Source: a virus
IMG/VR virus record: IMGVR_UViG_3300013383_000009
Location: 1 to 42,748 of that record
Strand: one strand, 5' to 3'
Length of the DNA: 42,748 nt
The notes below the pieces were generated by a model. That model did not search any database, was not told where the DNA came from, and saw only the letters and a program-made list of their open reading frames with translations. Below, piece after piece: positions 2,352 through 42,748 of the stretch. Made by a program: the position numbers and the translations under genes. Within the stretch, counting starts at the first letter, position 1. Every line of letters begins with the position of its first letter.

Positions 2352-2404
2352 CCGTTCTATTCCTCCACAATAAGTGTTTTCACCTATACCACCAAACACG
2401 GTGT

Positions 2405-2428
2405 TTGTTGCACACTTTTGTGCAACAA
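2405..2428. promoter_or_regulatory. Operator-like perfect palindrome (10-4-10)
   Basis: ttgttgcaca cttt tgtgcaacaa, in the divergent intergenic region 2400-2643. Confidence 0.55.
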
Positions 2429-2456
2429 AATCGTAGAAAATAGAAATTTTGTTCTA

Positions 2457-2487
2457 CCCTCCCCATCCCCGCACCGGACGGGGAGGG
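2457..2487 (-). promoter_or_regulatory. Second copy (inverted orientation) of the conserved hairpin of the 1022-1136 RNA
   Basis: The minus-sense sequence ccctccccgtccggtgcggggatggggaggg folds as a 12-bp stem with loop GGUGCGG. It shares 7+9+9 identical nt with 1059-1091, and the two stem differences keep pairing. Confidence 0.55.
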
Positions 2488-3237: not shown

Positions 3238-4315
3238 ATGCGGAACAGCTCTTGTCCCGGGCGCTGTATATTGCCATCTCTGTGGCAAAAAACAGGTAAC
3301 AGAGCGGCGCAAGGCATTGAAGCGGGCAAACGGCACCGGAACTGTATACAAACTGGCTGGGCGTAGAAAATCGCCTTGGGTGGCCGCAAAAAACAAAGTG
3401 ATTATCGGGCATTATGAGCGCAAAACGGACGCTCTGGACGCTTTGGAGCGGTTGAACGGCAAGAGTTTAACGGAGCGGTATAATATGACCTTTGCGGAAG
3501 TCTTTGATGCTTGGAAAGAGGAGCATTACAAAGAGATCGGCAAGCAGGGGATAGAATCATATAACAACGCCTACCGCATATTTACGCCGTTGCACGGGAA
3601 AAAGTTTCGTGATCTCCGCACCGCAGACTTTCAGGCCGTACTTGACCCACACATGACCAAGAGCCATTCCACCGTGAACAAGTACAAGCAGCTCATAACG
3701 CAGATGTCGAACTGGGCAATCCGGGAGGAAATCTGCACAACAAATTTTGCAAAGTTTGTCCGGCTGCCGGAGAATGTCAAAAAAGAAAAGGACATCTTCA
3801 CGGAGGAAGATATCCGAAAATTGGAATCCGACAACAGCGATGCGGCGAAAATTGTCTTGATGCTGCTGGCAACGGGTATGCGTATTGGAGAGCTGTTTTT
3901 TTTGCCGCTGGCAGACTATCACGGCGATTATGTGATCGGCGGTGAAAAGACCGAAGCCGGACGAAACCGAATTATCCCCGTTCGCCAGGAGGGGAAAAAA
4001 TACTTTGCCTACTTTGCGAAGCGAGCAACGGGGGAGCTGCTGTTATCCGGCTACGATGGGCAAAAAGTCCCAGCAAACTTCCGCAGGCGTGATTTTTACC
4101 CACTCCTTGACCGGCTGGGCATAGAGCGCAAGACCCCACACGCCACACGCCACACATACGCATCCCGGGCGGTAAAAGAGGGATTGCCCCCGGAAATGCT
4201 GCAAAAAATACTCGGACACGCCGATTATTCCACCACCGCAAACATATATACACACATCGACGCGCAGACACTTGTGGATGCTGTTACTAACACGTTACTA
4301 ACAAATAAGAAATAA
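3221..4315 (+). CDS. int: Tyrosine integrase with N-terminal zinc-ribbon
   Basis: ATG at 3221 after GAGGAAG. N-terminal CIKCG...CHLCG. C-terminal HATRHTYAS...LGHADYSTTANIYTH gives the R..HxxR..Y catalytic signature. Confidence 0.92.
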   Translation: MSNCIKCGTALVPGAVYCHLCGKKQVTERRKALKRANGTGTVYKLAGRRKSPWVAAKNKVIIGHYERKTDALDALERLNGKSLTERYNMTFAEVFDAWKEEHYKEIGKQGIESYNNAYRIFTPLHGKKFRDLRTADFQAVLDPHMTKSHSTVNKYKQLITQMSNWAIREEICTTNFAKFVRLPENVKKEKDIFTEEDIRKLESDNSDAAKIVLMLLATGMRIGELFFLPLADYHGDYVIGGEKTEAGRNRIIPVRQEGKKYFAYFAKRATGELLLSGYDGQKVPANFRRRDFYPLLDRLGIERKTPHATRHTYASRAVKEGLPPEMLQKILGHADYSTTANIYTHIDAQTLVDAVTNTLLTNKK

Positions 4316-28880: not shown

Positions 28881-30115
28881 GCAATAACTCCCATTCTGCG
28901 GCTGACAGGCTCTAACGCATATCTCGTCGCGTCAATCAGGTGGTTGTTCGCGTCAGGGTAGCCGCTAATAATGTCGCCGTCTTTGCTTCTTTCGTATTCG
29001 TACCCCACAAATTCATCATAAGCATGTGGGGTTCTCTTCCTGTCTATTACGATTGTGCGCCGCTGCAGAAATTTCATACCATATTCCACGGACCCGGGGC
29101 CCTTTACCGCCTCAAGTGCCGGAAGTCCCATCGCGCGGAAGTCTGCCACGCTCTTAGGCTCTGCACTATCGCAAATAGTTCGCACGTTTTTATATCCTCG
29201 CTGCTTGATTATTGTCGCGCTTTGCTCATTGGATAGTTTGTTTTGGTAAATTTCATCCAGCAAGTAAATGGTTTCGCGCGCCCGGTCGTAGTGCAGCCGG
29301 ATAAAAGCAAACGGATCGGGAAACCACCCAAAGTCAACGCCCTGGTAAATCTTATCGAATCTTTTAAATTCGTCATCCGTGATTTCCCGCAGTTCCAGCT
29401 TGTCGAACACATTGCCGCCCGTACCCACAGGAATGCCTAAATACTCATGCTGGTACGCTCTCTCGTCCGTGGCCTTGAGATGTTCCGCTTCCGCTAAAAA
29501 CTGCTCACCCAGCCACTCTGGCGGGGCTTGCAAGTATGTTGACTTGTGGCACAGCCTGTCTGTGCGTTCTTCTAGGCTGTCCTTGTTCGCCCAGTTATCG
29601 CGGCTTATCGGCGGGTTGTAGCTTTCAAAGTTCCAATACTTCGAGCCACCGCGCATGGTCGATTGCAAAATCGTTCGTATCTCGGCACGACCGGCAAACT
29701 GGTCTTTTTCTTCAAAGTGTGTCACGGCAATGTAGCCAAACGGCACCTTGATAGACTTGATCTTCATGGGATCGTCAGCACCCCGAAACATGATTTTCTG
29801 CCCGGTAGGCTTGTAGATTAGCTCCATCGGGGAAACCTTTGCTTCCCAATACGCCGCCATACCCAACTCACCGATTGCCCAGATATACTGTGCGTACACG
29901 CTATCGCGGATGGTGTTTGCCACCTTTCGCAGCACGAGCGCGTGTGTCCCCGGATTGTTTATCAGCAGCAGGGGGACAAGTACAGACACAGTGGAGGACT
30001 TCAGTGAGCCGCGCCCGCCACTAAAATCGTAGTGCGTATGCCTGTGGTAAAACACATCGTGAGCCACATCGTAAAAAGCCGAGCCGATTTTTTCTGACAA
30101 GAGAATATCAGACAT
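28877..30115 (-). CDS. terL: Terminase large subunit (PBSX / Terminase_3-like)
   Basis: ATG at 30115. Walker-A-like GGRGSLKSS near the N-terminus, followed by a C-terminal nuclease-type region. Confidence 0.92.
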   Translation of the reverse strand: MSDILLSEKIGSAFYDVAHDVFYHRHTHYDFSGGRGSLKSSTVSVLVPLLLINNPGTHALVLRKVANTIRDSVYAQYIWAIGELGMAAYWEAKVSPMELIYKPTGQKIMFRGADDPMKIKSIKVPFGYIAVTHFEEKDQFAGRAEIRTILQSTMRGGSKYWNFESYNPPISRDNWANKDSLEERTDRLCHKSTYLQAPPEWLGEQFLAEAEHLKATDERAYQHEYLGIPVGTGGNVFDKLELREITDDEFKRFDKIYQGVDFGWFPDPFAFIRLHYDRARETIYLLDEIYQNKLSNEQSATIIKQRGYKNVRTICDSAEPKSVADFRAMGLPALEAVKGPGSVEYGMKFLQRRTIVIDRKRTPHAYDEFVGYEYERSKDGDIISGYPDANNHLIDATRYALEPVSRRMGVIA

Positions 30116-30521
30116 CAATAACCACCTTGACGGAATCCGTGCTTATTTTTGTCTCGCTCACTTCACGCCAACCGAAATTGCATCCAAGCGAGAATTTCGC
30201 GCCGTTCGCACCATCTTTGTCGTAGAGCCGAGATTCGGCGTATTCTTCGCATCTGGACTTTGCGCGCGTAACCGTGTCCGCAAACTCCGGTCTCCCCTGA
30301 TAATCAATCAGCGCCTGCCGCCCTGTGAACCCAAGCGACAACGCCAGCCCCGTTACCGTCGGCGGCTTTGCGTTGATGATGATCGGCACGCCGTATTTAT
30401 CCCGTACAGCGCAGCCGTCATCACCGATAAAGGGTTTTCCTTCGCACTCTTTGAAATAAGCGTCAATGGCGTCTTGCATCGCCTTTACGCTTTTCCATTT
30501 TCTTGGCGCTCCGCCAGCCAT
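30108..30521 (-). CDS. terS: Terminase small subunit
   Basis: ATG (MAGGAPRKWKSVKAMQDAIDAYF...) after AAGGAAG. PPTVTGLALSLGF is an HTH typical of TerS. The track's N-terminal extension is unsupported. Confidence 0.8.
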   Translation of the reverse strand: MAGGAPRKWKSVKAMQDAIDAYFKECEGKPFIGDDGCAVRDKYGVPIIINAKPPTVTGLALSLGFTGRQALIDYQGRPEFADTVTRAKSRCEEYAESRLYDKDGANGAKFSLGCNFGWREVSETKISTDSVKVVIDV

Positions 30522-30726
30522 GCGCTCACTTCCTTTCGTTTTGCTACCAGCCCCCACCCCTTGGCTACAGTAACAGTCTTTCCCCGCCCATGCGGCCTTC
30601 TGGAAGCTCTCAAACATGGGTTACACAGTCTGCCCGCAGAGGGGCAATGTCTTTTTTGCCGCTCACTTTTGAGCGCTGATTTTGTAAGTTTACTTTCGCC
30701 AGCGAATTTTCGTTGATGACTTATCC

Positions 30727-31383
30727 CTACGCAGACAGACGCTTTGTGTTTGTCTGCATAATGAACTCTTTTACTTGGTCATATCCCCATCCGCAGTCTA
30801 CAAGACCGCTCACAAGGCGTTCCATAGACTGCACAGCAGACAGTTCATCGGAAGAAAAGCAATCACGCGGATTTCCTTTTTTATCAAGGCCGTATTCCTC
30901 CCGCAGTTGTTTTGCGTCCTTGCCAAATAACGCCTTGTAAATACAGTTCGTATAGACGGAATATGCGTGCCCGTGCATACGGTCATTTTCTGCGGACTGT
31001 TGCAGTGCTTTTGTCAGAGCGTGCCTTACCGCTACGCCTTTTTCTCTTTCGATCAGTTTCCCGCGCAACGCAGCTTCCATCGCATTAAACTGCTTTATGT
31101 ACGCTTCCTTAAATTTCATGGCGAGTTCTCCGGTATAACCCATTGCAAGAATGGTAAATCCGTCCCTCGTCATAATATACATGGGCAGCTTTTTGCCTTG
31201 TACGGTATCGTAAGAGGAAGGCCCAAAATTGGACTGTCGAAAATCGTCGCTACAGCCCAATTCGCGTATGTCTCTCAAAATGTGCTTGTGTTCTTTGCCA
31301 AATGTCTCAGCAACATCAAGGCTTGTGCATACCGCGCGGTCTTCTTTCCCAACTTTCATAATTTCTACCAGCATTTTTATCAA
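30727..31383 (-). CDS. Rha-family phage regulatory protein
   Basis: SLDVAETFGKEHKHILRDIREL...MTRDGFTILAMGYTG matches the Rha (Phage_pRha) N-terminal pattern. Confidence 0.85.
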   Translation of the reverse strand: MIKMLVEIMKVGKEDRAVCTSLDVAETFGKEHKHILRDIRELGCSDDFRQSNFGPSSYDTVQGKKLPMYIMTRDGFTILAMGYTGELAMKFKEAYIKQFNAMEAALRGKLIEREKGVAVRHALTKALQQSAENDRMHGHAYSVYTNCIYKALFGKDAKQLREEYGLDKKGNPRDCFSSDELSAVQSMERLVSGLVDCGWGYDQVKEFIMQTNTKRLSA

Positions 31384-31389
31384 TCCTTT

Positions 31390-32073
31390 CCTGTTGATTT
31401 TTGGTAAGCAGACTATTTAGGACGCATCCCTTGTAGCGGTCTGCCAGCGCATATCCGCACTTTCGGGCAGGCGCTATGCCATTTGCCCACGGCAGCGGTT
31501 CTCCGCTTTTGGAGCGGCGCTGCGGTCCTGCCCCGCTTTAGCACTTCAGGGAAAGTCCCCGTCACTCGCTGTGGTCTCCCCTTACGGGGCACCTGCGCCA
31601 CATATTGGTCGTCTTCCCGCTTAGATTGTCACACGCTACCGGCAAATACGCTTCGAAAAGTCGTATCCCCTATTCCGTCTGGTCAAACCGGTCTTGACGC
31701 ATCAAGACAAGCGCAGTTTTCAGCGAGCATTGTCATTTCCATGTGAGCCACGACGAACGGTCTCACAGTGTCCGGGCGCTACCCGGCCTCTTGTGCAAGC
31801 GGCTGGACTCGAACCAGCGACCAATGGAATTCAATCGCATATCCATTTGCGCGATAAAGCTCTACCGACTGAGCTACGCCTGCATATAACAACAGCCCAT
31901 AGGTTTCCCTACAGGCTGTTTGTGCCGGTATGACCTTTCGGTGCCAGAAGGTGCGCCCATTACCGACGGCGCATATAGTATCGAAAGGAGGAGAGATGAA
32001 AGCTACATGGTGTAGCCGGGGTGGATGTCTTGGCTTTTGCCCAATCATCCACTATACACATTTTACCACATCA
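31390..32073 (-). ncRNA. Candidate large structured non-coding RNA (class unresolved; GOLLD/ROOL-like context)
   Basis: No credible CDS in 684 nt. An extended -10 (TGgTAAAAT, plus 32060-32068) sits at the 5' side. Many minus-sense hairpins carry GAAA, GUAA or UGCG loops. A tRNA-like module is embedded. Confidence 0.5.
31794..31883 (-). tRNA. tRNA-like module, 90 nt, with a non-canonical 40-nt D-to-T region (identity unresolved)
   Basis: Minus-sense GCAGGCG TA GCTC AGTCGGTA GAGC ...40 nt... GCTGG TTCGAGT CCAGC CGCTTGC A. The best anticodon arm is ATGCG-AUUGAAU-TCCAT (one C.C mismatch, anticodon UGA), preceded by a 17-nt insertion. Alternative helices ATCGC/GCGAT and AATGGA/TCCATT interleave. 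No CCA is encoded. Confidence 0.55.
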
Positions 32074-32538
32074 TTAAGTGGAATTTGTGCCATCTTTTGC
32101 GTAAAGGCCGCTATATTTGGCCACATCCATCAAAAATTGCTCTTTCCTCCGGCTAAATGTCCTCTCGCTGATCCCCGGAATCACGATCTTGTTGCGAGAG
32201 TATTTGTGCTTGCCCTGGCAGTTGCGCATGATGCCATATATCAGTTGCCGCCGGATCGTCTCGCTGCTAATATCTCTGCCGCAGCGGTCTATAGCGTATT
32301 CCACCGCCAGCATCTTCTGCGTCTCTGGCCAGTGCTCTATGGCGGCCAGTTGCTCCGCCTTGCTCTCGGCGGGTCTGCCAGCGCCTTGTCCACTTGGCAT
32401 GCCCTCCGTGGCTCTATGCGTTCCGTCGAGGATTTCCGCCCGGGCCTCGCGATATGCCCGCACCCGGCGCGGGTATCCTCTCACATAAGCAATGCACTCC
32501 AACCGCACATCATAAGGCAGCGTCGCCTTTTTGCTCAT
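32074..32538 (-). CDS. Putative late-gene transcriptional activator (RinA/ArpU-like)
   Basis: 154 aa upstream of the packaging module. IAYVRGYPRRVRAYREARAEIL plus a C-terminal HTH-like ISERTFSRRKEQFL. The call rests on position and pattern. Confidence 0.6.
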   Translation of the reverse strand: MSKKATLPYDVRLECIAYVRGYPRRVRAYREARAEILDGTHRATEGMPSGQGAGRPAESKAEQLAAIEHWPETQKMLAVEYAIDRCGRDISSETIRRQLIYGIMRNCQGKHKYSRNKIVIPGISERTFSRRKEQFLMDVAKYSGLYAKDGTNST

Positions 32539-32548
32539 TTGCCCTCCT

Positions 32549-32842
32549 TTACTCCGCGCTGTTTACCAGCTTATATTCGCCCCGCAGGGCCTTTTCGATG
32601 TCCGCCATCTTGATATATCCGTTGTTTTTTGCCTCCACCAGCTCCACAAGGCATTGCTGTAGGTATTCCAAGCTCCGGGCGTCGTGCTCGTCCGCCGTCT
32701 CCTCCCTCACATGGAATCCGCACTTGTCCAGCAGCACGCAGGACACATTGTCCATGCATTGTTTGGTTCCATCCAGGCGGCCCAGCTCATAGGCTTTGGC
32801 CGGATTATTGGGCACCGGTCTGCCGTTGGTTCGCTTGAGCAT
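32549..32842 (-). CDS. Hypothetical protein
   Basis: ATG (MLKRTNGRPVPNN...) 6 nt after AGAGGTG. Confidence 0.65.
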   Translation of the reverse strand: MLKRTNGRPVPNNPAKAYELGRLDGTKQCMDNVSCVLLDKCGFHVREETADEHDARSLEYLQQCLVELVEAKNNGYIKMADIEKALRGEYKLVNSAE

Positions 32843-35104: not shown

Positions 35105-35382
35105 GGCGCCCCTCTTTTCCCGCGTTGGCCGCTCAAGATGTCTGCAGCCGCCCGCAAGTCGTCCGGCATCCCAACGGGGCATGTAAAAGCGTTTTCGTCT
35201 CCCCACTTGGCATATTCCAGCAGGATGCGTGCGATTTGACCCGCGTCACGCTCTCGCACGGTGTCATCGTTTATGTAGTGCTTACATTTTTCGTCGCGCA
35301 CCAAAAATCCCCCCGTGCAATATGTCCCGCAAATATCCTCGCGCATCCTTGCATACCAGCAAGTCGTACACGGCGCACTCAT
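35101..35382 (-). CDS. Small Cys-rich protein
   Basis: ATGA overlap with the PP-loop gene. Begins MSAPCTTCWYARMREDICGTYCTGG. Confidence 0.65.
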   Translation of the reverse strand: MSAPCTTCWYARMREDICGTYCTGGFLVRDEKCKHYINDDTVRERDAGQIARILLEYAKWGDENAFTCPVGMPDDLRAAADILSGQRGKRGAP

Positions 35383-36518
35383 CCTTTCCCCTCCTCCAGC
35401 AAATCCACCTGCCCATCAAACTCTATCGAGTTTTTTGCTTCCGTCTTCTTTTTCTCCGCGCCTTCTTTTTTTCGGTGCTCCTTGTATTCGTTGTATTTTT
35501 GGCGGTAAATGTAAGATTTCCCAAAGATGCTCCACGCGGCCTTCACAACGTTAGGTTCATACGGTCGAATCAGCTCCAGGTCATCCACGGCCTTGTAGGA
35601 GATGGGGCAGCCGCAGCAGCCGGTACGAGTCAAGCCGTAGACCTCGTATGCGTCAGAGTATCGCACGCCGTAGAACTCTTTGTACCACGCCTTATCTGCA
35701 TCCGAGACGTAGTACAGAGGCCGAAGCCGGTACTGTCCGGTGCTAGTTTCTGTAAAGCAGAGTGATGTATTGTCCTTTCGAGGCACGGATCGCATGCCTC
35801 CCTCGTCCCGACGTTCGCCGGTGATAATCATGTCAAAGTCCTTTTGCACCCGGTGGGCCACCTGCTTTTTGCAGTAGTCGCAGCATTTTGCGCTGATTGG
35901 GAAGTCGGGAGGATACTCACCAATAAAGTCACGCATATACTTGCTGGAATTTATGACCAGCTGGATATTGGGGCGCGGCTCACCTGCCGAGTTACAGCAG
36001 CACAAGAAATTCAATACGCTTTCGCATTTTGGATAGCGTTCCCGCAACTCCTGCCGCTTCGCCTGTTTATCTTCCGCCGCGTCGTATTCTTCGGCCACCG
36101 ACAGGGGGACGCCCTTTTTTTGCCATTCGGACAGACCGGCGGACATGATTTTTGATACAAATGGGATCCCATACTTCCTGGATGCGGTGACGATGCTCAC
36201 CTTGGGCCTGTACTCTGTGATCTCCACGCCGTATTTCTCCGCCGCAGCCTTCACATGATCCTTTGTGGCCTTCATTTCCAGCCCCGTATTAAAAAAGGCG
36301 TATTTTACCGGTGGCAGATTGAAAATCTTACGGGTGCGCTCGATCAGGTCCAGCAAAATATCGCTGTCCGCGCCGCCCGAGTAGGAGCATATCGCGCTTG
36401 GATGCTGCGTCAGATGTTTGGCGATAATGCTTTCAATAGCCTGGAACTTTGCCGGGGCATCAAAATCCGCATAAGGCGGTCTGTCGGTGTATACCCGGCT
36501 TTTGTATGTATCTTTCAC
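35379..36518 (-). CDS. PP-loop ATP pyrophosphatase / PAPS-reductase-family protein with Cys-rich C-terminal half
   Basis: SYSGGADSDILLDL is an SGGxDS PP-loop. Cys clusters CCCNSAG, CCDYCKK and RTGCCGCP. Confidence 0.85.
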   Translation of the reverse strand: MKDTYKSRVYTDRPPYADFDAPAKFQAIESIIAKHLTQHPSAICSYSGGADSDILLDLIERTRKIFNLPPVKYAFFNTGLEMKATKDHVKAAAEKYGVEITEYRPKVSIVTASRKYGIPFVSKIMSAGLSEWQKKGVPLSVAEEYDAAEDKQAKRQELRERYPKCESVLNFLCCCNSAGEPRPNIQLVINSSKYMRDFIGEYPPDFPISAKCCDYCKKQVAHRVQKDFDMIITGERRDEGGMRSVPRKDNTSLCFTETSTGQYRLRPLYYVSDADKAWYKEFYGVRYSDAYEVYGLTRTGCCGCPISYKAVDDLELIRPYEPNVVKAAWSIFGKSYIYRQKYNEYKEHRKKEGAEKKKTEAKNSIEFDGQVDLLEEGKG

Positions 36519-37118: not shown

Positions 37119-38804
37119 TCACACCGCCATTCCATCCATCAGTTCTGCCATCGTAGCAATTTTCTTCCCGCACCACTCCGGAAGGTTTGCGCGCACCAGC
37201 GCAGACGCCACCGGCGGGCACACGGCATTGCCGCAACGGGCCACCTGCTTAGTCCTCCCGTATTCGTTTCCCAAATAGTCGTGGTCGATGATGTAGTCGG
37301 GCGGGAATCCCATCGCGTTATACAGCTCGCGGGGCGACAGCATCCGCAGTCCGATGTCTGCGATGTAGTACATGGTCCCTCCGATCTCCAGCAGAAGCAC
37401 ATCATTCTCCGCCAGCGTATAGCCGCAGAACTCGTTCAGCAGGGCGCGTATCTCCGGCCAGTATCCAAGATCGTCGCCGCTGCGCATCTTTGTCAGATAC
37501 GCCTTGCACACGGCAAACTCCCCGGCGCTGGCGGTCACGGTCTGCATCGGGTCCTTTGCGCCATGTCCCAGGTCATCGCCCTTGAACTTCACAACATGAG
37601 CAGCGCATACCGCATTGTGGTCAATGGCTGTTACCGTAGGCAACGGCTCCACTGCCTTTCCGCCCACAACACCGCCGTAAAACTTGGCGATATGTGTCGC
37701 TATCACCGCCTCCCGGTCATGGCTGGTGACGGTGTGCATTGGCTGCTGTATGTCCAGCGGCCTGCCGCCGGTGTAATACTCCACCAAATTGGCGCAGGTC
37801 AGGCCGTAGCGGTTAGATGCGTCCACGGTGTTGATAGGCGTTCCCAGTCCGGAAGCGCGGACGCTCTCCGTCTGCTCCGTGTGATACTGGATCAGCGCGG
37901 GCGCCACGATATCGCCGGTGTGTTTTGCCGTAATGGTCTTGTGTGCATCTGTCACAGGTGCAATATGTCCGCTTCCGGAATGGTTGCACTCAACCAAGAA
38001 CGGATGCCCGCTGCGGATGGTAAACTTGTCCACGCCCCGGATGATACGCCGCACGGTGTTCTTCGCCAGCGGCCGCACTGCCTTTAGACCGTATTCGGTT
38101 ATGATCTCCGCCTTTGTTGCAAACACCGACGGACAGGGCAGACTCCAGTCGATGATCTCCGCCGCGCTGCGCCACTTGGGCCGCCCGTCTGCGCCAGTCT
38201 TGCTGTGGGTGGGCTTCGGCCACACGATGGGCTTGCCGTCACAGCGGGCAATCATGTAAAACCGTTTGCGGGAGGTAGGCGCTCCAAAGTCCGCCGCCAC
38301 CAATTCCCGGAACTCCACGGTGTAGCCCAGCGCCTCCAGTTGGCTGATAAACCGCCGGAAAGTCGTTCCTGCCAGCTTCTTCACCGGCTTACCCTTACGC
38401 ACAGGCCCCCAGGTCTGAAATTCCTCCACATTTTCCAGGATGATGACCCTGGGCCGCACCTCCGCCGCCCAGCGAAGAGTGATCCACGCAAGGCCGCGAA
38501 TTTTACGATCCACCAATGCCGCGCCCTTGGCCTTAGAGAAGTGCTTGCAGTCAGGCGAAAACCACGCCAGCCCCACGGGGCGGCCTCTGCAAACGGATTT
38601 TGGGTCTACATCCCAAACGGACGCTTGCAGGTGCTCCGTATACGGGTGGTTTGTGCGGTGCATAAGGATGGCATCCGGGTCGTGGTTAATGGCAATCGCC
38701 ACCTGTCTTCCGGTAGCCAGTTCAATGCCGGTGGATGCCCCGCCGCCACCGGCAAAGTTATCGACGATAATCTCTCCCGTCATCGTCTCCTGCGCGAATA
38801 TCAT
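37119..38804 (-). CDS. DNA (cytosine-5) methyltransferase with a very long variable region
   Basis: Motif I DNFAGGGG, motif IV-like FSPDCKHFS, motif VI ILENVEEF, C-terminal CGNAVCPPV. About 330 aa separate the ENV motif from the C-terminal motifs. Confidence 0.88.
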   Translation of the reverse strand: MIFAQETMTGEIIVDNFAGGGGASTGIELATGRQVAIAINHDPDAILMHRTNHPYTEHLQASVWDVDPKSVCRGRPVGLAWFSPDCKHFSKAKGAALVDRKIRGLAWITLRWAAEVRPRVIILENVEEFQTWGPVRKGKPVKKLAGTTFRRFISQLEALGYTVEFRELVAADFGAPTSRKRFYMIARCDGKPIVWPKPTHSKTGADGRPKWRSAAEIIDWSLPCPSVFATKAEIITEYGLKAVRPLAKNTVRRIIRGVDKFTIRSGHPFLVECNHSGSGHIAPVTDAHKTITAKHTGDIVAPALIQYHTEQTESVRASGLGTPINTVDASNRYGLTCANLVEYYTGGRPLDIQQPMHTVTSHDREAVIATHIAKFYGGVVGGKAVEPLPTVTAIDHNAVCAAHVVKFKGDDLGHGAKDPMQTVTASAGEFAVCKAYLTKMRSGDDLGYWPEIRALLNEFCGYTLAENDVLLLEIGGTMYYIADIGLRMLSPRELYNAMGFPPDYIIDHDYLGNEYGRTKQVARCGNAVCPPVASALVRANLPEWCGKKIATMAELMDGMAV

Positions 38805-41975: not shown

Positions 41976-42237
41976 CGCCTGCCTCCTTAGTCCATACATC
42001 CCGAGTAACTCGCGTGATCTCCGGGATGCCGCCCCGGTACATGGCCTGCAGCACTACGTCCGCGCCGGTGCCGCAAACAACAATCTCCGATTCCGTGATT
42101 GCCTTATAGCCCCCTAACGTCATATCGGCGTTTTTGCCGCATAACGTATCCCCGATTGCCACGAGCGGGACGGATGACCGAAACACATGCCGGATACCGC
42201 ACCATTCTGCCGTTGCAACATAATAATGTCCAATCAT
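41959..42237 (-). CDS. Hypothetical protein
   Basis: ATG (MIGHYYVATAEW...) overlaps the stop of the repeat protein by 1 nt. Confidence 0.6.
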   Translation of the reverse strand: MIGHYYVATAEWCGIRHVFRSSVPLVAIGDTLCGKNADMTLGGYKAITESEIVVCGTGADVVLQAMYRGGIPEITRVTRDVWTKEAGDAKDD

Positions 42238-42748
42238 CACTCCGCCTCCACGATCTTGCCGCCCCGCATGGTATACCAAGTGTCGGCCTTGATGGTATCG
42301 CCGTCCACCTTTTCCATCACCGCGTTAATTATGTTGCCGAGCTCGTCATGCTCGGTAACCACAATCCACGTACCGATCTTACCCCGGGCGCGGCTGTTGA
42401 TCCCCCACGCTACGGCGATGCACTGATTGCCATCTGCTGACGCGGTGCCAAACGCGCCGGATGCAACAGCCGTGCCCATCGAACCGGACGCGGCGGCGTT
42501 GCCCATCAAACCGGACGCAGCGGCGTTGCCACTCTCACCGGACGCGGCGGCGTTGCCCATCAAACCGGACACGGCGGCGTTGCCCTTCCAACCGGACGCG
42601 GCGGCGTTGCCCTTCCAACCGGACGCAGCGGCGTTGCCCAGCGAACCGGACGCGGCGGCGTTGCCCTTCCAACCGGACGCGGCGGCGTTGCCCATCACGC
42701 CGGACGCGGCGGCGTTGCCCATCCAACCGGACGCAGCGGCGTTGCCCC
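42237..42748 (-). CDS. C-terminal part of the junction-spanning repeat protein (continues from 419..1)
   Basis: The frame is open to the window end. GNAAASGxx repeats are followed by the globular tail ...IAVAWGINSRARGKIGTWIVVTEHDELGNIINAVMEKVDGDTIKADTWYTMRGGKIVEAE. Confidence 0.85.
   Translation of the reverse strand, partial: GNAAASGWMGNAAASGVMGNAAASGWKGNAAASGSLGNAAASGWKGNAAASGWKGNAAVSGLMGNAAASGESGNAAASGLMGNAAASGSMGTAVASGAFGTASADGNQCIAVAWGINSRARGKIGTWIVVTEHDELGNIINAVMEKVDGDTIKADTWYTMRGGKIVEAE
42477..42748 (-). repeat. In-frame 27-bp tandem repeat array (10 units here) encoding 9-aa units GNAAASGxx
   Basis: Units of the form cNNNNNaccggacgc[g/a]gcggcgttgcc recur every 27 nt. The translation is GNAAASG plus 2 variable residues. 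Confidence 0.95.
42697..42748. repeat. Terminal direct repeat, identical to 1-52
   Basis: Same 52-mer as the window start. Confidence 0.95.

Follow-up and report, generated by a model that had tools for sequence, protein, structure and literature searches.

A candidate array of small structured RNAs and tRNA-like modules between two regulator genes of a gut phage

Positions 1 to 42,748 of the IMG/VR virus record IMGVR_UViG_3300013383_000009 (hereafter the window, meaning the whole 42,748-nucleotide (nt) stretch that was analysed) contain an RNA island at 31384-32073, minus sense, which is flanked by a 154-amino-acid (aa) open reading frame (ORF; 32074-32538) and by a Rha-family gene (30727-31383). 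Having compared this island with a total of about 280 gut-phage loci, we propose, with a probability of roughly 60%, that it is transcribed as one array of small structured RNAs, which host transfer RNA (tRNA)-processing enzymes then cut apart. The array would run head-to-tail on one strand, as a 5' hairpin with a CU-rich tract, module M1, a tRNA-like scaffold without an anticodon arm, module M2, module M3 ending in NCCA, and module M4. Comparative sequence analysis establishes the minus-strand folds of M1 and M3 and the signals at module junctions and tails, and we infer how the array is transcribed and processed, and that its products are stable and functional.

In the proposed mechanism, one precursor would be transcribed from an extended -10 element behind a sigma-like regulator gene. 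Host RNase P would cut at the AUAU/G junctions (the slash marks the cut), and the 3' tRNA-maturation enzymes would trim the products to NCCA. M3 and the tRNA-like RNA would in this way be released as stable tRNA-sized molecules, and M1, M2 and M4 would be freed between them. Since the window has no terminator, the transcript probably continues into the Rha and terminase genes. The most economical guess for the released RNAs is tRNA mimicry, by which they would tie up tRNA-binding factors of the host or draw them away.

Independent inheritance of the modules

A set of 160 IMG/VR loci was retrieved through the two flanking proteins; with the GenBank stool contig L001 it comprised 161 loci, and 89 of these matched the interval in blastn searches. 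Per-position coverage by the 89 loci revealed sharply bounded blocks of conservation along the interval. On the minus strand, M1 (31885-31975) is present in about 76 of the 89 loci, the centre of the tRNA-like module (within 31794-31883) in 38, M2 (31606-31791) in 51-64, M3 (31510-31601) in about 75, M4 (31451-31509) in about 25, and the Rha leader (31384-31450) in about nine. Relatives combine these blocks in other architectures, namely M1-X-M3-terminator, M1-Y-M4, M1-scaffold-M2-M3 and M1-scaffold-tRNA(Trp)-M2-M3. M3 comes before M2, downstream of Rha, in L005-L010, and the module order is fully reversed in MT836871, an unannotated stool contig that is the sole match among cultured or deposited phages in GenBank.

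Single modules can also be missing or separated. M3 is precisely absent from L089 (3750-3800), where ATAT-GCCGCACAAT is joined to the same terminator as in L087. A 1.3-kb insert lies between the 5' part of M2 and M3 in L160 (3813-5136) and also in L157. In L087 a strong intrinsic terminator (GAGCGGGAGCUCCGCUC followed by UUUUU; ~3848-3880) stands right after M3, about 400 nt from the start of the island, and precedes ParB-methylase and terminase genes. The absent M3, the insert and the terminator do not fit one RNA evolving as a unit. The first-pass annotation had read the ~690 nt as a candidate large RNA; its parts are independently present, absent, reordered and re-partnered in relatives. 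Taken together, these comparisons show that the modules are inherited and shuffled independently. The insert of L160 holds two opposite-strand ORFs of 174 aa (with a helix-turn-helix-like C-terminus) and 106 aa, possibly a moron or a toxin-antitoxin pair.

The same data bear on the view that the whole ~650-nt transcript is a single ornate RNA resembling GOLLD or ROOL, with a constant core and a swappable periphery that includes the tRNA-like module. GOLLD RNAs are described as having a variable 5' half or region and a constant 3' half, as being typically longer than 800 nt, and as able to carry tRNAs in a linker (PMC12286853, PMC5737381). The setting is that of GOLLD and ROOL as well, a prophage (integrase, ERF, SSB, terminase, lysin) with tRNA or tRNA-like genes inside the island and alongside it, although this location is common to both classes and diagnoses neither. 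Moreover, the window has one promoter-like element and no internal terminator, M1 and M3 each occur in about 85% of the 89 matching loci, and the invariant M3 loop sequence GGCAGG is complementary to CCUGCC in M4.

However, we found no covariance-model match to GOLLD or ROOL, the classes suggested at first pass, when Rfam was scanned over the whole window at gathering score and over 31250-32200 on both strands at E ≤ 10 with lax filters; these scans returned only tRNA plus chance-level fragments, and 32 related loci searched at gathering score gave no match to either class. The interval spans 690 nt and the longest block inherited whole about 190 nt, and the features supported here that can be set beside ROOL are only one four-way junction (M3) and one candidate pseudoknot (M1). 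Many phages carry M3 without M1, M2 or M4, either in tRNA arrays or behind the RNAs skipping-rope and drum. The module order is reversed in L001 and L005-L010, the Rha gene or the 1.3-kb opposite-strand insert splits the modules in some loci, no covariation between modules was seen, and M1 and M3 each fold alone. We therefore consider a single large RNA quite improbable. The earlier idea is supported in so far as the interval is a conserved, structured, minus-sense non-coding region of a prophage with RNAs absent from Rfam (M1 and M3), and not as regards their union in one large molecule. A proposed long-range pairing, CUGCC...GGCAG (31441-31495), was not confirmed; its 3' partner lies in a segment shared by only about nine relatives and its 5' partner in M4 (about 25).

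Several other candidates were examined and rejected. Weak Rfam matches to CRISPR-repeat, YrlA and Plastid-ycf2 were judged to be chance or an echo of the tRNA arms. No self-complementary loop pair of the phi29 packaging-RNA type was found by inspection. A theta-like ribozyme, related to that of hepatitis delta virus (HDV), was considered after the tRNA-like 3' ends, and no HDV-like Rfam family appeared there at E ≤ 10; when M2 and M4 were threaded by eye on an HDV-like nested double pseudoknot, the P1 and P2 strands never came in the required order.

The interval was first described as free of ORFs in the gene orientation, and this holds. No conserved ORF lies in 31384-32073, each of the three sense frames contains 5-12 stop codons, and a check of codon periodicity was negative. 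In alignments with relatives, variable sites are distributed over the codon positions as 35/26/38% in M1 and 35/35/30% in M3; neither alignment has the third-position excess that is evident in the adjacent regulator gene (23/15/62%). The interval is non-coding. The longest sense ORF in it, of 62 aa (31413-31601), was rejected as a gene, most homologues having an in-frame TAG, and so was an 89-aa ORF (31779-32048) that passes through the tRNA-like module. A plus-strand ORF of 227 aa (31930-32613), which overlaps the regulator gene in antisense and has a strong ribosome-binding site (GGAGGAGAG-ATG), was dismissed as a shadow ORF, because relatives hold only a 7-codon ORF at that site.

Folding of the whole interval gave z scores against shuffles of -2.4 for the minus strand and -3.0 for the plus strand. 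With such moderate values on both strands, thermodynamics and hairpin density alone are weak evidence and are not strand-specific. The case for the structures is nevertheless strong, and it is comparative evidence from related sequences, not folding energy, that makes them convincing. The individual hairpins picked out at first pass were all found by sequence check on the minus strand, namely CAGCC-UG-UAGG-GAAA-CCUA-UG-GGCUG (31893-31918), ACC-GAAA-GGU (31933-31942), GUCUUGA-UGCG-UCAAGAC (31691-31708), CCCC-GUAA-GGGG (31578-31589) and CCGGG-UAGCG-CCCGG (31772-31786).

The M3 and M1 folds

M3 is predicted to form a four-way-junction cloverleaf, on which RNAalifold and the single-sequence minimum free energy (MFE) fold agree, so that M3 by itself folds into the comparative structure. 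Its parts are a closing, acceptor-like stem of 7 base pairs (bp), an arm capped by GUAA, a 4-bp arm with an invariant 7-nt loop, and a third arm in which an internal loop (AGYGAC/GAAG) is conserved and the tip is replaced freely; the loops read GUAA, CUU and GGCAGGA. One unpaired A follows and then a tail, which in the window is UCCA. Across 52 distinct sequences 97.5% of the cells are paired, compared with 34-47% in controls in which the partner was slid. Compensatory changes occur in 8 of 28 pairs, as against 2.8 ± 1.3 in shuffles (0/500), and 4 of the 7 pairs of the closing stem covary. The paired columns hold 72 G.U but only 12 A.C combinations, and this excess indicates an RNA that is minus-sense in the window, the orientation favoured from the outset.

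The bases that flank M3 include putative processing signals. NCCA follows the stem directly in 94 of 113 copies (83%). Position -1 holds a pyrimidine in 111 of 113 copies, usually within AUAU; ATAT precedes M3 in 86 of 113. A pattern search recovered M3 in at least 119 further IMG/VR loci, where it stands alone, within arrays of Gly, Trp and Gln tRNAs, or with other partners, always on the strand of the neighbouring genes. Where the context is identifiable, M3 lies between early regulators and terminase or ParB-methylase genes. The pattern also matched one 40-kb contig in a metagenome-assembled genome labelled 'Clostridiales bacterium', and a search of 80 loci anchored on Rha with the M3 model gave no diverged copy.

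Two observations concern the partners of M3. Over 6 nt, its loop GGCAGGA (31525-31531) is complementary to the conserved CCUGCC of M4 (31466-31471); this pairing is beyond the reach of covariation, because both strands are invariant, and M4 is not nearby in most M3 copies. In other islands a known orphan RNA lies directly 5' of M3 on the same strand. Skipping-rope (RF02924, ~45 bits) takes this position in L177 (11637-11731), L162 (2349-2443) and L234 (3186-3280), and drum (RF02958, 82 bits) lies directly 5' of M3 in L201 (1618-1723) and upstream of Rha in L005 (2721-2826). The gap between skipping-rope and M3 in L177 is about 8 nt, M3 opens there at an AUAU/A junction, and no terminator stands between the two. 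Neither RNA was found in the window at E ≤ 10.

M1 starts about 80-100 nt past the stop codon of the regulator gene. It is built from a P1 hairpin (31953-31972; GCGCC/GGCGC), a middle part that exists in at least three swapped versions, each composed of GNRA-capped mini-hairpins, and P3, a 12-bp G+C-rich hairpin (31892-31919) followed by UGUUAUAU. The P1 loop GUCGGUA (31961-31967; GYCGGUA in relatives) is complementary to UACCGGC (31924-31930), 30-40 nt downstream. Divergent M1 copies, scoring 27-30 bits with the covariance model, were found behind a regulator homologue of 54% identity (L209), and with these included compensatory changes occur in 9 of 24 pairs, eight in P3 and one in P1; shuffles gave 2.4 ± 1.1 (0/500), so that compensatory pairs exceed shuffles in M1 as they do in M3. 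The two pseudoknot strands never changed on both sides, showed 5-6 wobble-compatible changes and three unpaired cells, and stayed constant while the segment between them was replaced. This pattern of sequence change favours the pseudoknot, which we regard as a candidate. On its own, M1 folds into the comparative structure, with a single-sequence z of -2.65.

An extended -10-like element, TGTGGTAAAAT (32060-32070, minus strand), lies right after the regulator stop codon; it includes the TGgTAAAAT (32060-32068) that had been noted ahead of the region. A -10-like element is conserved in relatives, reading TGTGCTACAAT in most of them and TAAAAT, overlapping the stop codon, in L209. The TG-n-TA(C/A)AAT element keeps register with the following GUGG...CCAC hairpin, not with the stop codon. 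That hairpin, GUGGAUG...CAUCCAC in the window (32021-32052, minus strand), marks the predicted transcript start, and in relatives it has the same GUGG...CCAC ends around another interior. Because a simple sigma-70 scan called no -35/-10 pair on the minus strand within the interval, and no terminator either, we infer the promoter from conservation. Downstream, a CU-rich stretch (31980-32000, minus strand) contains UCCUCC at 31987-31992 and resembles the 3' end of 16S ribosomal RNA (the anti-Shine-Dalgarno sequence). UUCCUCC is conserved about 10 nt 5' of M1 P1 in the main group and in L209 (~2570-2590), and it also heads an unrelated island in L177 (11285-11300); no conserved antisense ORF that would account for the tract was found.

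The position and shape of M1 raise another explanation, in which the island, above all M1, is a cis-acting leader of the late operon that controls read-through to the packaging and late genes, with the tRNA-like modules as passengers. M1 always lies behind the regulator gene wherever upstream sequence exists, even where the regulator is only 54% identical, and it follows the conserved -10-like element by about 80-100 nt. P3, with its eight compensatory pairs, is succeeded by UGUUAUAU in the window and by UGUUUUUAU or GCUUUUAU in the divergent copies; the latter tails are more terminator-like, and P3 therefore resembles a weak terminator or attenuator. No other terminator occurs in the window before Rha and the small terminase gene terS. 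In phage lambda, a late-regulator gene (Q), a promoter (PR'), a short 6S leader and a hairpin (tR') likewise precede the late genes, and the gene order here matches this Q-PR'-tR' arrangement. P3 and its U-rich tail could thus act as an attenuator like tR' after PR', or M1 could act on RNA polymerase in the manner of HK022 put. The likeness to lambda Q-PR'-tR' and HK022 put is confined to M1 and consists of a regulator, a promoter-like element, a leader that is short and structured, and a hairpin ahead of a U-rich tail; there is no relation in sequence or fold, the regulator looks sigma-like and not Q-like, and a tRNA-like array intervenes.

Several findings are at odds with a leader as the whole explanation. 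M1 has only a weak U-tract in the window, P3 was not among the calls of the terminator scan, and no antiterminator pairing alternative to P3 was seen. A leader leaves unexplained why M3, M2 and the scaffold are conserved and move without M1 or the regulator. The island of L087 closes at its own strong terminator before the late genes, which fits a stand-alone RNA unit better. We consider the leader explanation rather unlikely by itself; it is compatible with a processed array, in which M1 may act in cis additionally or instead.

The tRNA-like scaffold, M2 and M4

The tRNA-like module recognized at first pass (31794-31883, minus strand) is genuine by the Rfam tRNA model, which it passes with 46.5 bits (gathering score 29); ARAGORN calls it as well (31793-31883). 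The acceptor arm is GCAGGCG/CGCUUGC, the D arm GCUC-AGUCGGUA-GAGC (containing GG) and the T arm GCUGG-UUCGAGU-CCAGC. However, the Rfam alignment leaves 34 central nt unaligned where 17 are expected. The stem on which ARAGORN bases its Ala(cgc) call needs G33 and two G.U pairs, and it is broken in L124 and L155. An alternative helix, AAUGG/CCAUU, is retained in these two loci through a U-A to G-C change and is the MFE helix; another perfect helix, AUCGC/GCGAU, is interleaved with it, and the centre of the scaffold is thus possibly a pseudoknot. With the centre unaligned, the ARAGORN stem broken and the rival helix covarying, we read the scaffold as a tRNA shape without a decoding arm.

Relatives of the scaffold have the same outer arms (>95% identity) around at least six unrelated central segments, with loops of 9-12 nt or truncated arms. 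ARAGORN labels them Ala, Cys, Thr, Asp, Ile, Val, Arg or '???'. Since calls as different as Ala, Cys, Asp, Ile, Val and Thr fall on one acceptor/D/T scaffold, tRNA calls in phage islands can be artefacts. The AUAU/G...NCCA frame that encloses M3 is also found on the scaffold and on the modules X1, Y and tRNA-Trp of relatives. Judged by these sequences, the tRNA-like modules keep the parts read in processing (the acceptor/T minihelix, NCCA and the pyrimidine at -1), and their decoding part is lost or replaced. The usual interpretation of phage tRNA islands is as codon-usage helpers; most 'tRNAs' of this island cannot decode, yet their processing-relevant parts are nearly unchanged and are interleaved with M1 and M3.

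Other tRNA calls accompany the modules in relatives. ARAGORN reports a 77-nt 'tRNA-Trp(cca)' from many islands (among them L105 3745-3821, L113 and L116), with a normal CUCCAAA loop and an irregular D arm; the Rfam tRNA model did not report it at gathering score. In L209 a canonical-looking tRNA-Gln(UUG) (2380-2457, minus strand) follows the divergent M1. The T arm and the 3' strand of the acceptor are common to this tRNA-Gln and the scaffolds, suggesting that the scaffolds originated from such a tRNA.

The shared arms could also be taken to mean that the region has no RNA function and consists of decaying phage tRNA genes, or that it holds signals acting at the DNA level, such as a pac site, a terminase recognition site or operator repeats. 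The anticodon region is indeed disrupted in every scaffold variant, the region lies immediately upstream of terS, and the two halves of a perfect inverted repeat in M1, GCCGGTA...TACCGGC, never changed together. However, tRNA genes in decay would not keep their acceptor, D and T arms >95% identical while the centre is swapped, and M3 is 93% conserved across at least 119 loci with compensatory changes. The bias of 72 G.U against 12 A.C is a signature of single-stranded RNA and not of duplex DNA, and the spacing of the M1 inverted repeat varies, with replacement segments 6 to 17 nt longer, which is unusual for a dimeric operator. We regard this explanation as very improbable.

A more specific form of the array proposal is that M3 and the scaffolds are a dedicated tRNA-mimic system, which would recruit RNase P and the 3' enzymes to carve out orphan RNAs (M2, skipping-rope, drum) and would afterwards serve as decoys or sponges of host factors that recognize the acceptor or elbow of tRNAs. 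Candidate targets are tRNA-targeting anti-phage nucleases, CCA-modifying toxins and T-box leaders, and the swappable central domains would, if this were true, be evolving 'bait'. We put it forward tentatively and find it doubtful at present. Such phage tRNA mimics would imply an interaction with host tRNA biology or with tRNA-directed defence.

M2 (minus strand, ~186 nt) comprises two 5' hairpins, the one at 31772-31786 and GUGAGAC...GGCUCAC, a swappable central domain with at least three variants, and conserved single-stranded UGACAAU motifs. It has only two compensatory pairs, one in each 5' hairpin, and its consensus fold is to be trusted only at these hairpins, because there is too little variation. 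An ops/JUMPstart element was considered in M2, where GCCGGTAGCGTG (31632-31653) matches 11 of 12 core bases; with an Rfam E of 1.4, and absent from M2 variant 2, this match is probably due to chance. M4 (minus strand) is a structured spacer after NCCA, with a GCGG-AGAA-CCGC hairpin and GGGCA...UGCCC, and in L086 and L110 it comes after another tRNA-like module, Y. Its enclosing helix AGCCGC/GCGGCU is compensatorily replaced by GGCAC/GUGCC in L005, L006 and L009; its fold z is -1.6 only. The remaining segment (31384-31450, minus strand) is the 5' untranslated region and ribosome-binding site of Rha, conserved only before closely related Rha genes (L002-L004), and is outside the RNA island proper.

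Several points weigh against a processed array of small RNAs. RNase P cleavage and 3' processing are deduced from shape and flanking bases alone, and the shared primary transcript is equally predicted by a single large RNA. The promoter resembles a consensus and is absent from the calls of the sigma-70 scan. For M3 no Rfam family, tRNA included, gave a match at E ≤ 10, ARAGORN is silent on it, and its 7-nt loop is not a T-loop; because of this, M3 is termed 'tRNA-like' for its topology, the lengths of its stems and its CCA tail. Arm 2 is fixed by the pattern with which the M3 set was gathered, so the covariation counts bear on the other parts of the fold, and with a mean column identity of 93% the diversity of the set is low, so that relatedness of the copies inflates the shuffle statistics. 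The alignment of M1 with its divergent members was fitted to the P1 and P3 of the model. The structures of M2 and M4 are poorly supported. Finally, the scaffold of the window ends in A-CAA and not in CCA; several relatives have A-CCA and others A-CAA, and CCA can be added enzymatically.

Genomic neighbourhood and comparison with known systems

The 154-aa ORF upstream (32074-32538, minus strand) encodes a putative late regulator with a match to PHROG 248, 'transcriptional activator' (E = 3.9e-4), and no Pfam or NCBIfam match even at permissive E. Its AlphaFold2 model has a mean confidence (pLDDT) of 77.5, and nearly all of its top PDB fold matches are sigma factors, at weak scores (E ≥ 0.09, TM-score ~0.2). 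The family is narrow and unnamed, with 158 matches; the 120 that are listed are all at least 74% identical to the window protein. 'Sigma-like late regulator' is thus a plausible description based on modelling. The label 'RinA/ArpU-like' given at first pass has weak support, and an assignment to RinA/ArpU is not established.

Downstream, the Rha-family regulator or anti-repressor (30727-31383, minus strand; Pfam PF09669, 4.3e-33, with PHROG matches) is followed by a GP3-type small terminase subunit, terS (30108-30617, minus strand; Pfam PF16677, GP3_package, 5.3e-19). The rest of the window encodes ERF, SSB, NinB, a C5 methylase and RusA upstream, and terminase, portal, lysin and integrase downstream. 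On the best explanation, the window represents the prophage of a temperate, siphovirus-like phage whose host belongs to the gut Clostridia, with the island at the early/late boundary; a protein scan of GTDB genomes for a host assignment gave no match. The early region further contains, on the minus strand, genes for a PAPS-reductase-domain protein (35379-36518), a 561-aa C5 cytosine methylase (37119-38804) and a collagen-repeat protein (42237-42722). The ORFs scanned lie outside the structural genes (8-30 kb) and comprise most of those in 33.7-42.7 kb and six in 1.2-8 kb; no RNA-repair or tRNA-modifying enzyme was found among them.

Phage T4 offers a precedent for such an arrangement, its species 1 and 2 RNAs (rnaC, rnaD) being stable small RNAs that lie in a tRNA transcription unit and are matured by the tRNA-processing machinery. 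The island shares with them tRNA-like ends beside tRNAs; it differs in that the sequences and hosts are unrelated and most 'tRNAs' here lack an anticodon arm. At the 3' end of MALAT1, RNase P cuts at a non-decoding cloverleaf, mascRNA. In gut phages, theta ribozymes (minimal HDV-like) sit against tRNA 3' ends (bioRxiv 10.1101/2023.06.13.544163). As in these two cases, a structured element abutting another RNA would here set its end by cleavage; M3, in addition, has loops and junctions conserved far beyond what a cleavage signal needs.

GOLLD and ROOL resemble the island in that they occur in phages or prophages, often near tRNA islands, and are non-coding and highly structured. The island differs from them in having no shared 400-nt core, multi-junction architecture or pseudoknot set, and it is made of units of ~60-190 nt that are inherited apart. 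Skipping-rope and drum, as first described, end in Rho-independent terminators and are orphans in function (PMC5737381). They occur in the same islands as M3 and are of similar size with conserved complex folds; the difference is that in the loci examined, apart from L005, M3 and not a terminator follows them. M3 is present in well over 100 human-gut phage genomes, and the skipping-rope and drum RNAs that it adjoins have been without an assigned function since 2017. Processing of the array in the proposed way would provide a testable route to how skipping-rope and drum are made, and possibly a class of phage tRNA mimics.

The IMG/VR survey of Fremin et al. 2023 reported tRNA-like candidates at sites where ARAGORN makes erratic calls (Asp, Cys, Arg), and an 86-nt Lachnospiraceae-phage RNA with high expression in stool small-RNA sequencing (PMC10690425). 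M3 or the scaffolds may be among these candidates, for which that catalogue gives no module-level anatomy or analysis of context. Compared with all of these systems, the kind of locus, a phage tRNA and non-coding RNA island, is known, and what is new here is that it holds at least two RNA families, M1 and M3, that Rfam lacks, together with scaffolds that have the shape of a tRNA and no anticodon arm.

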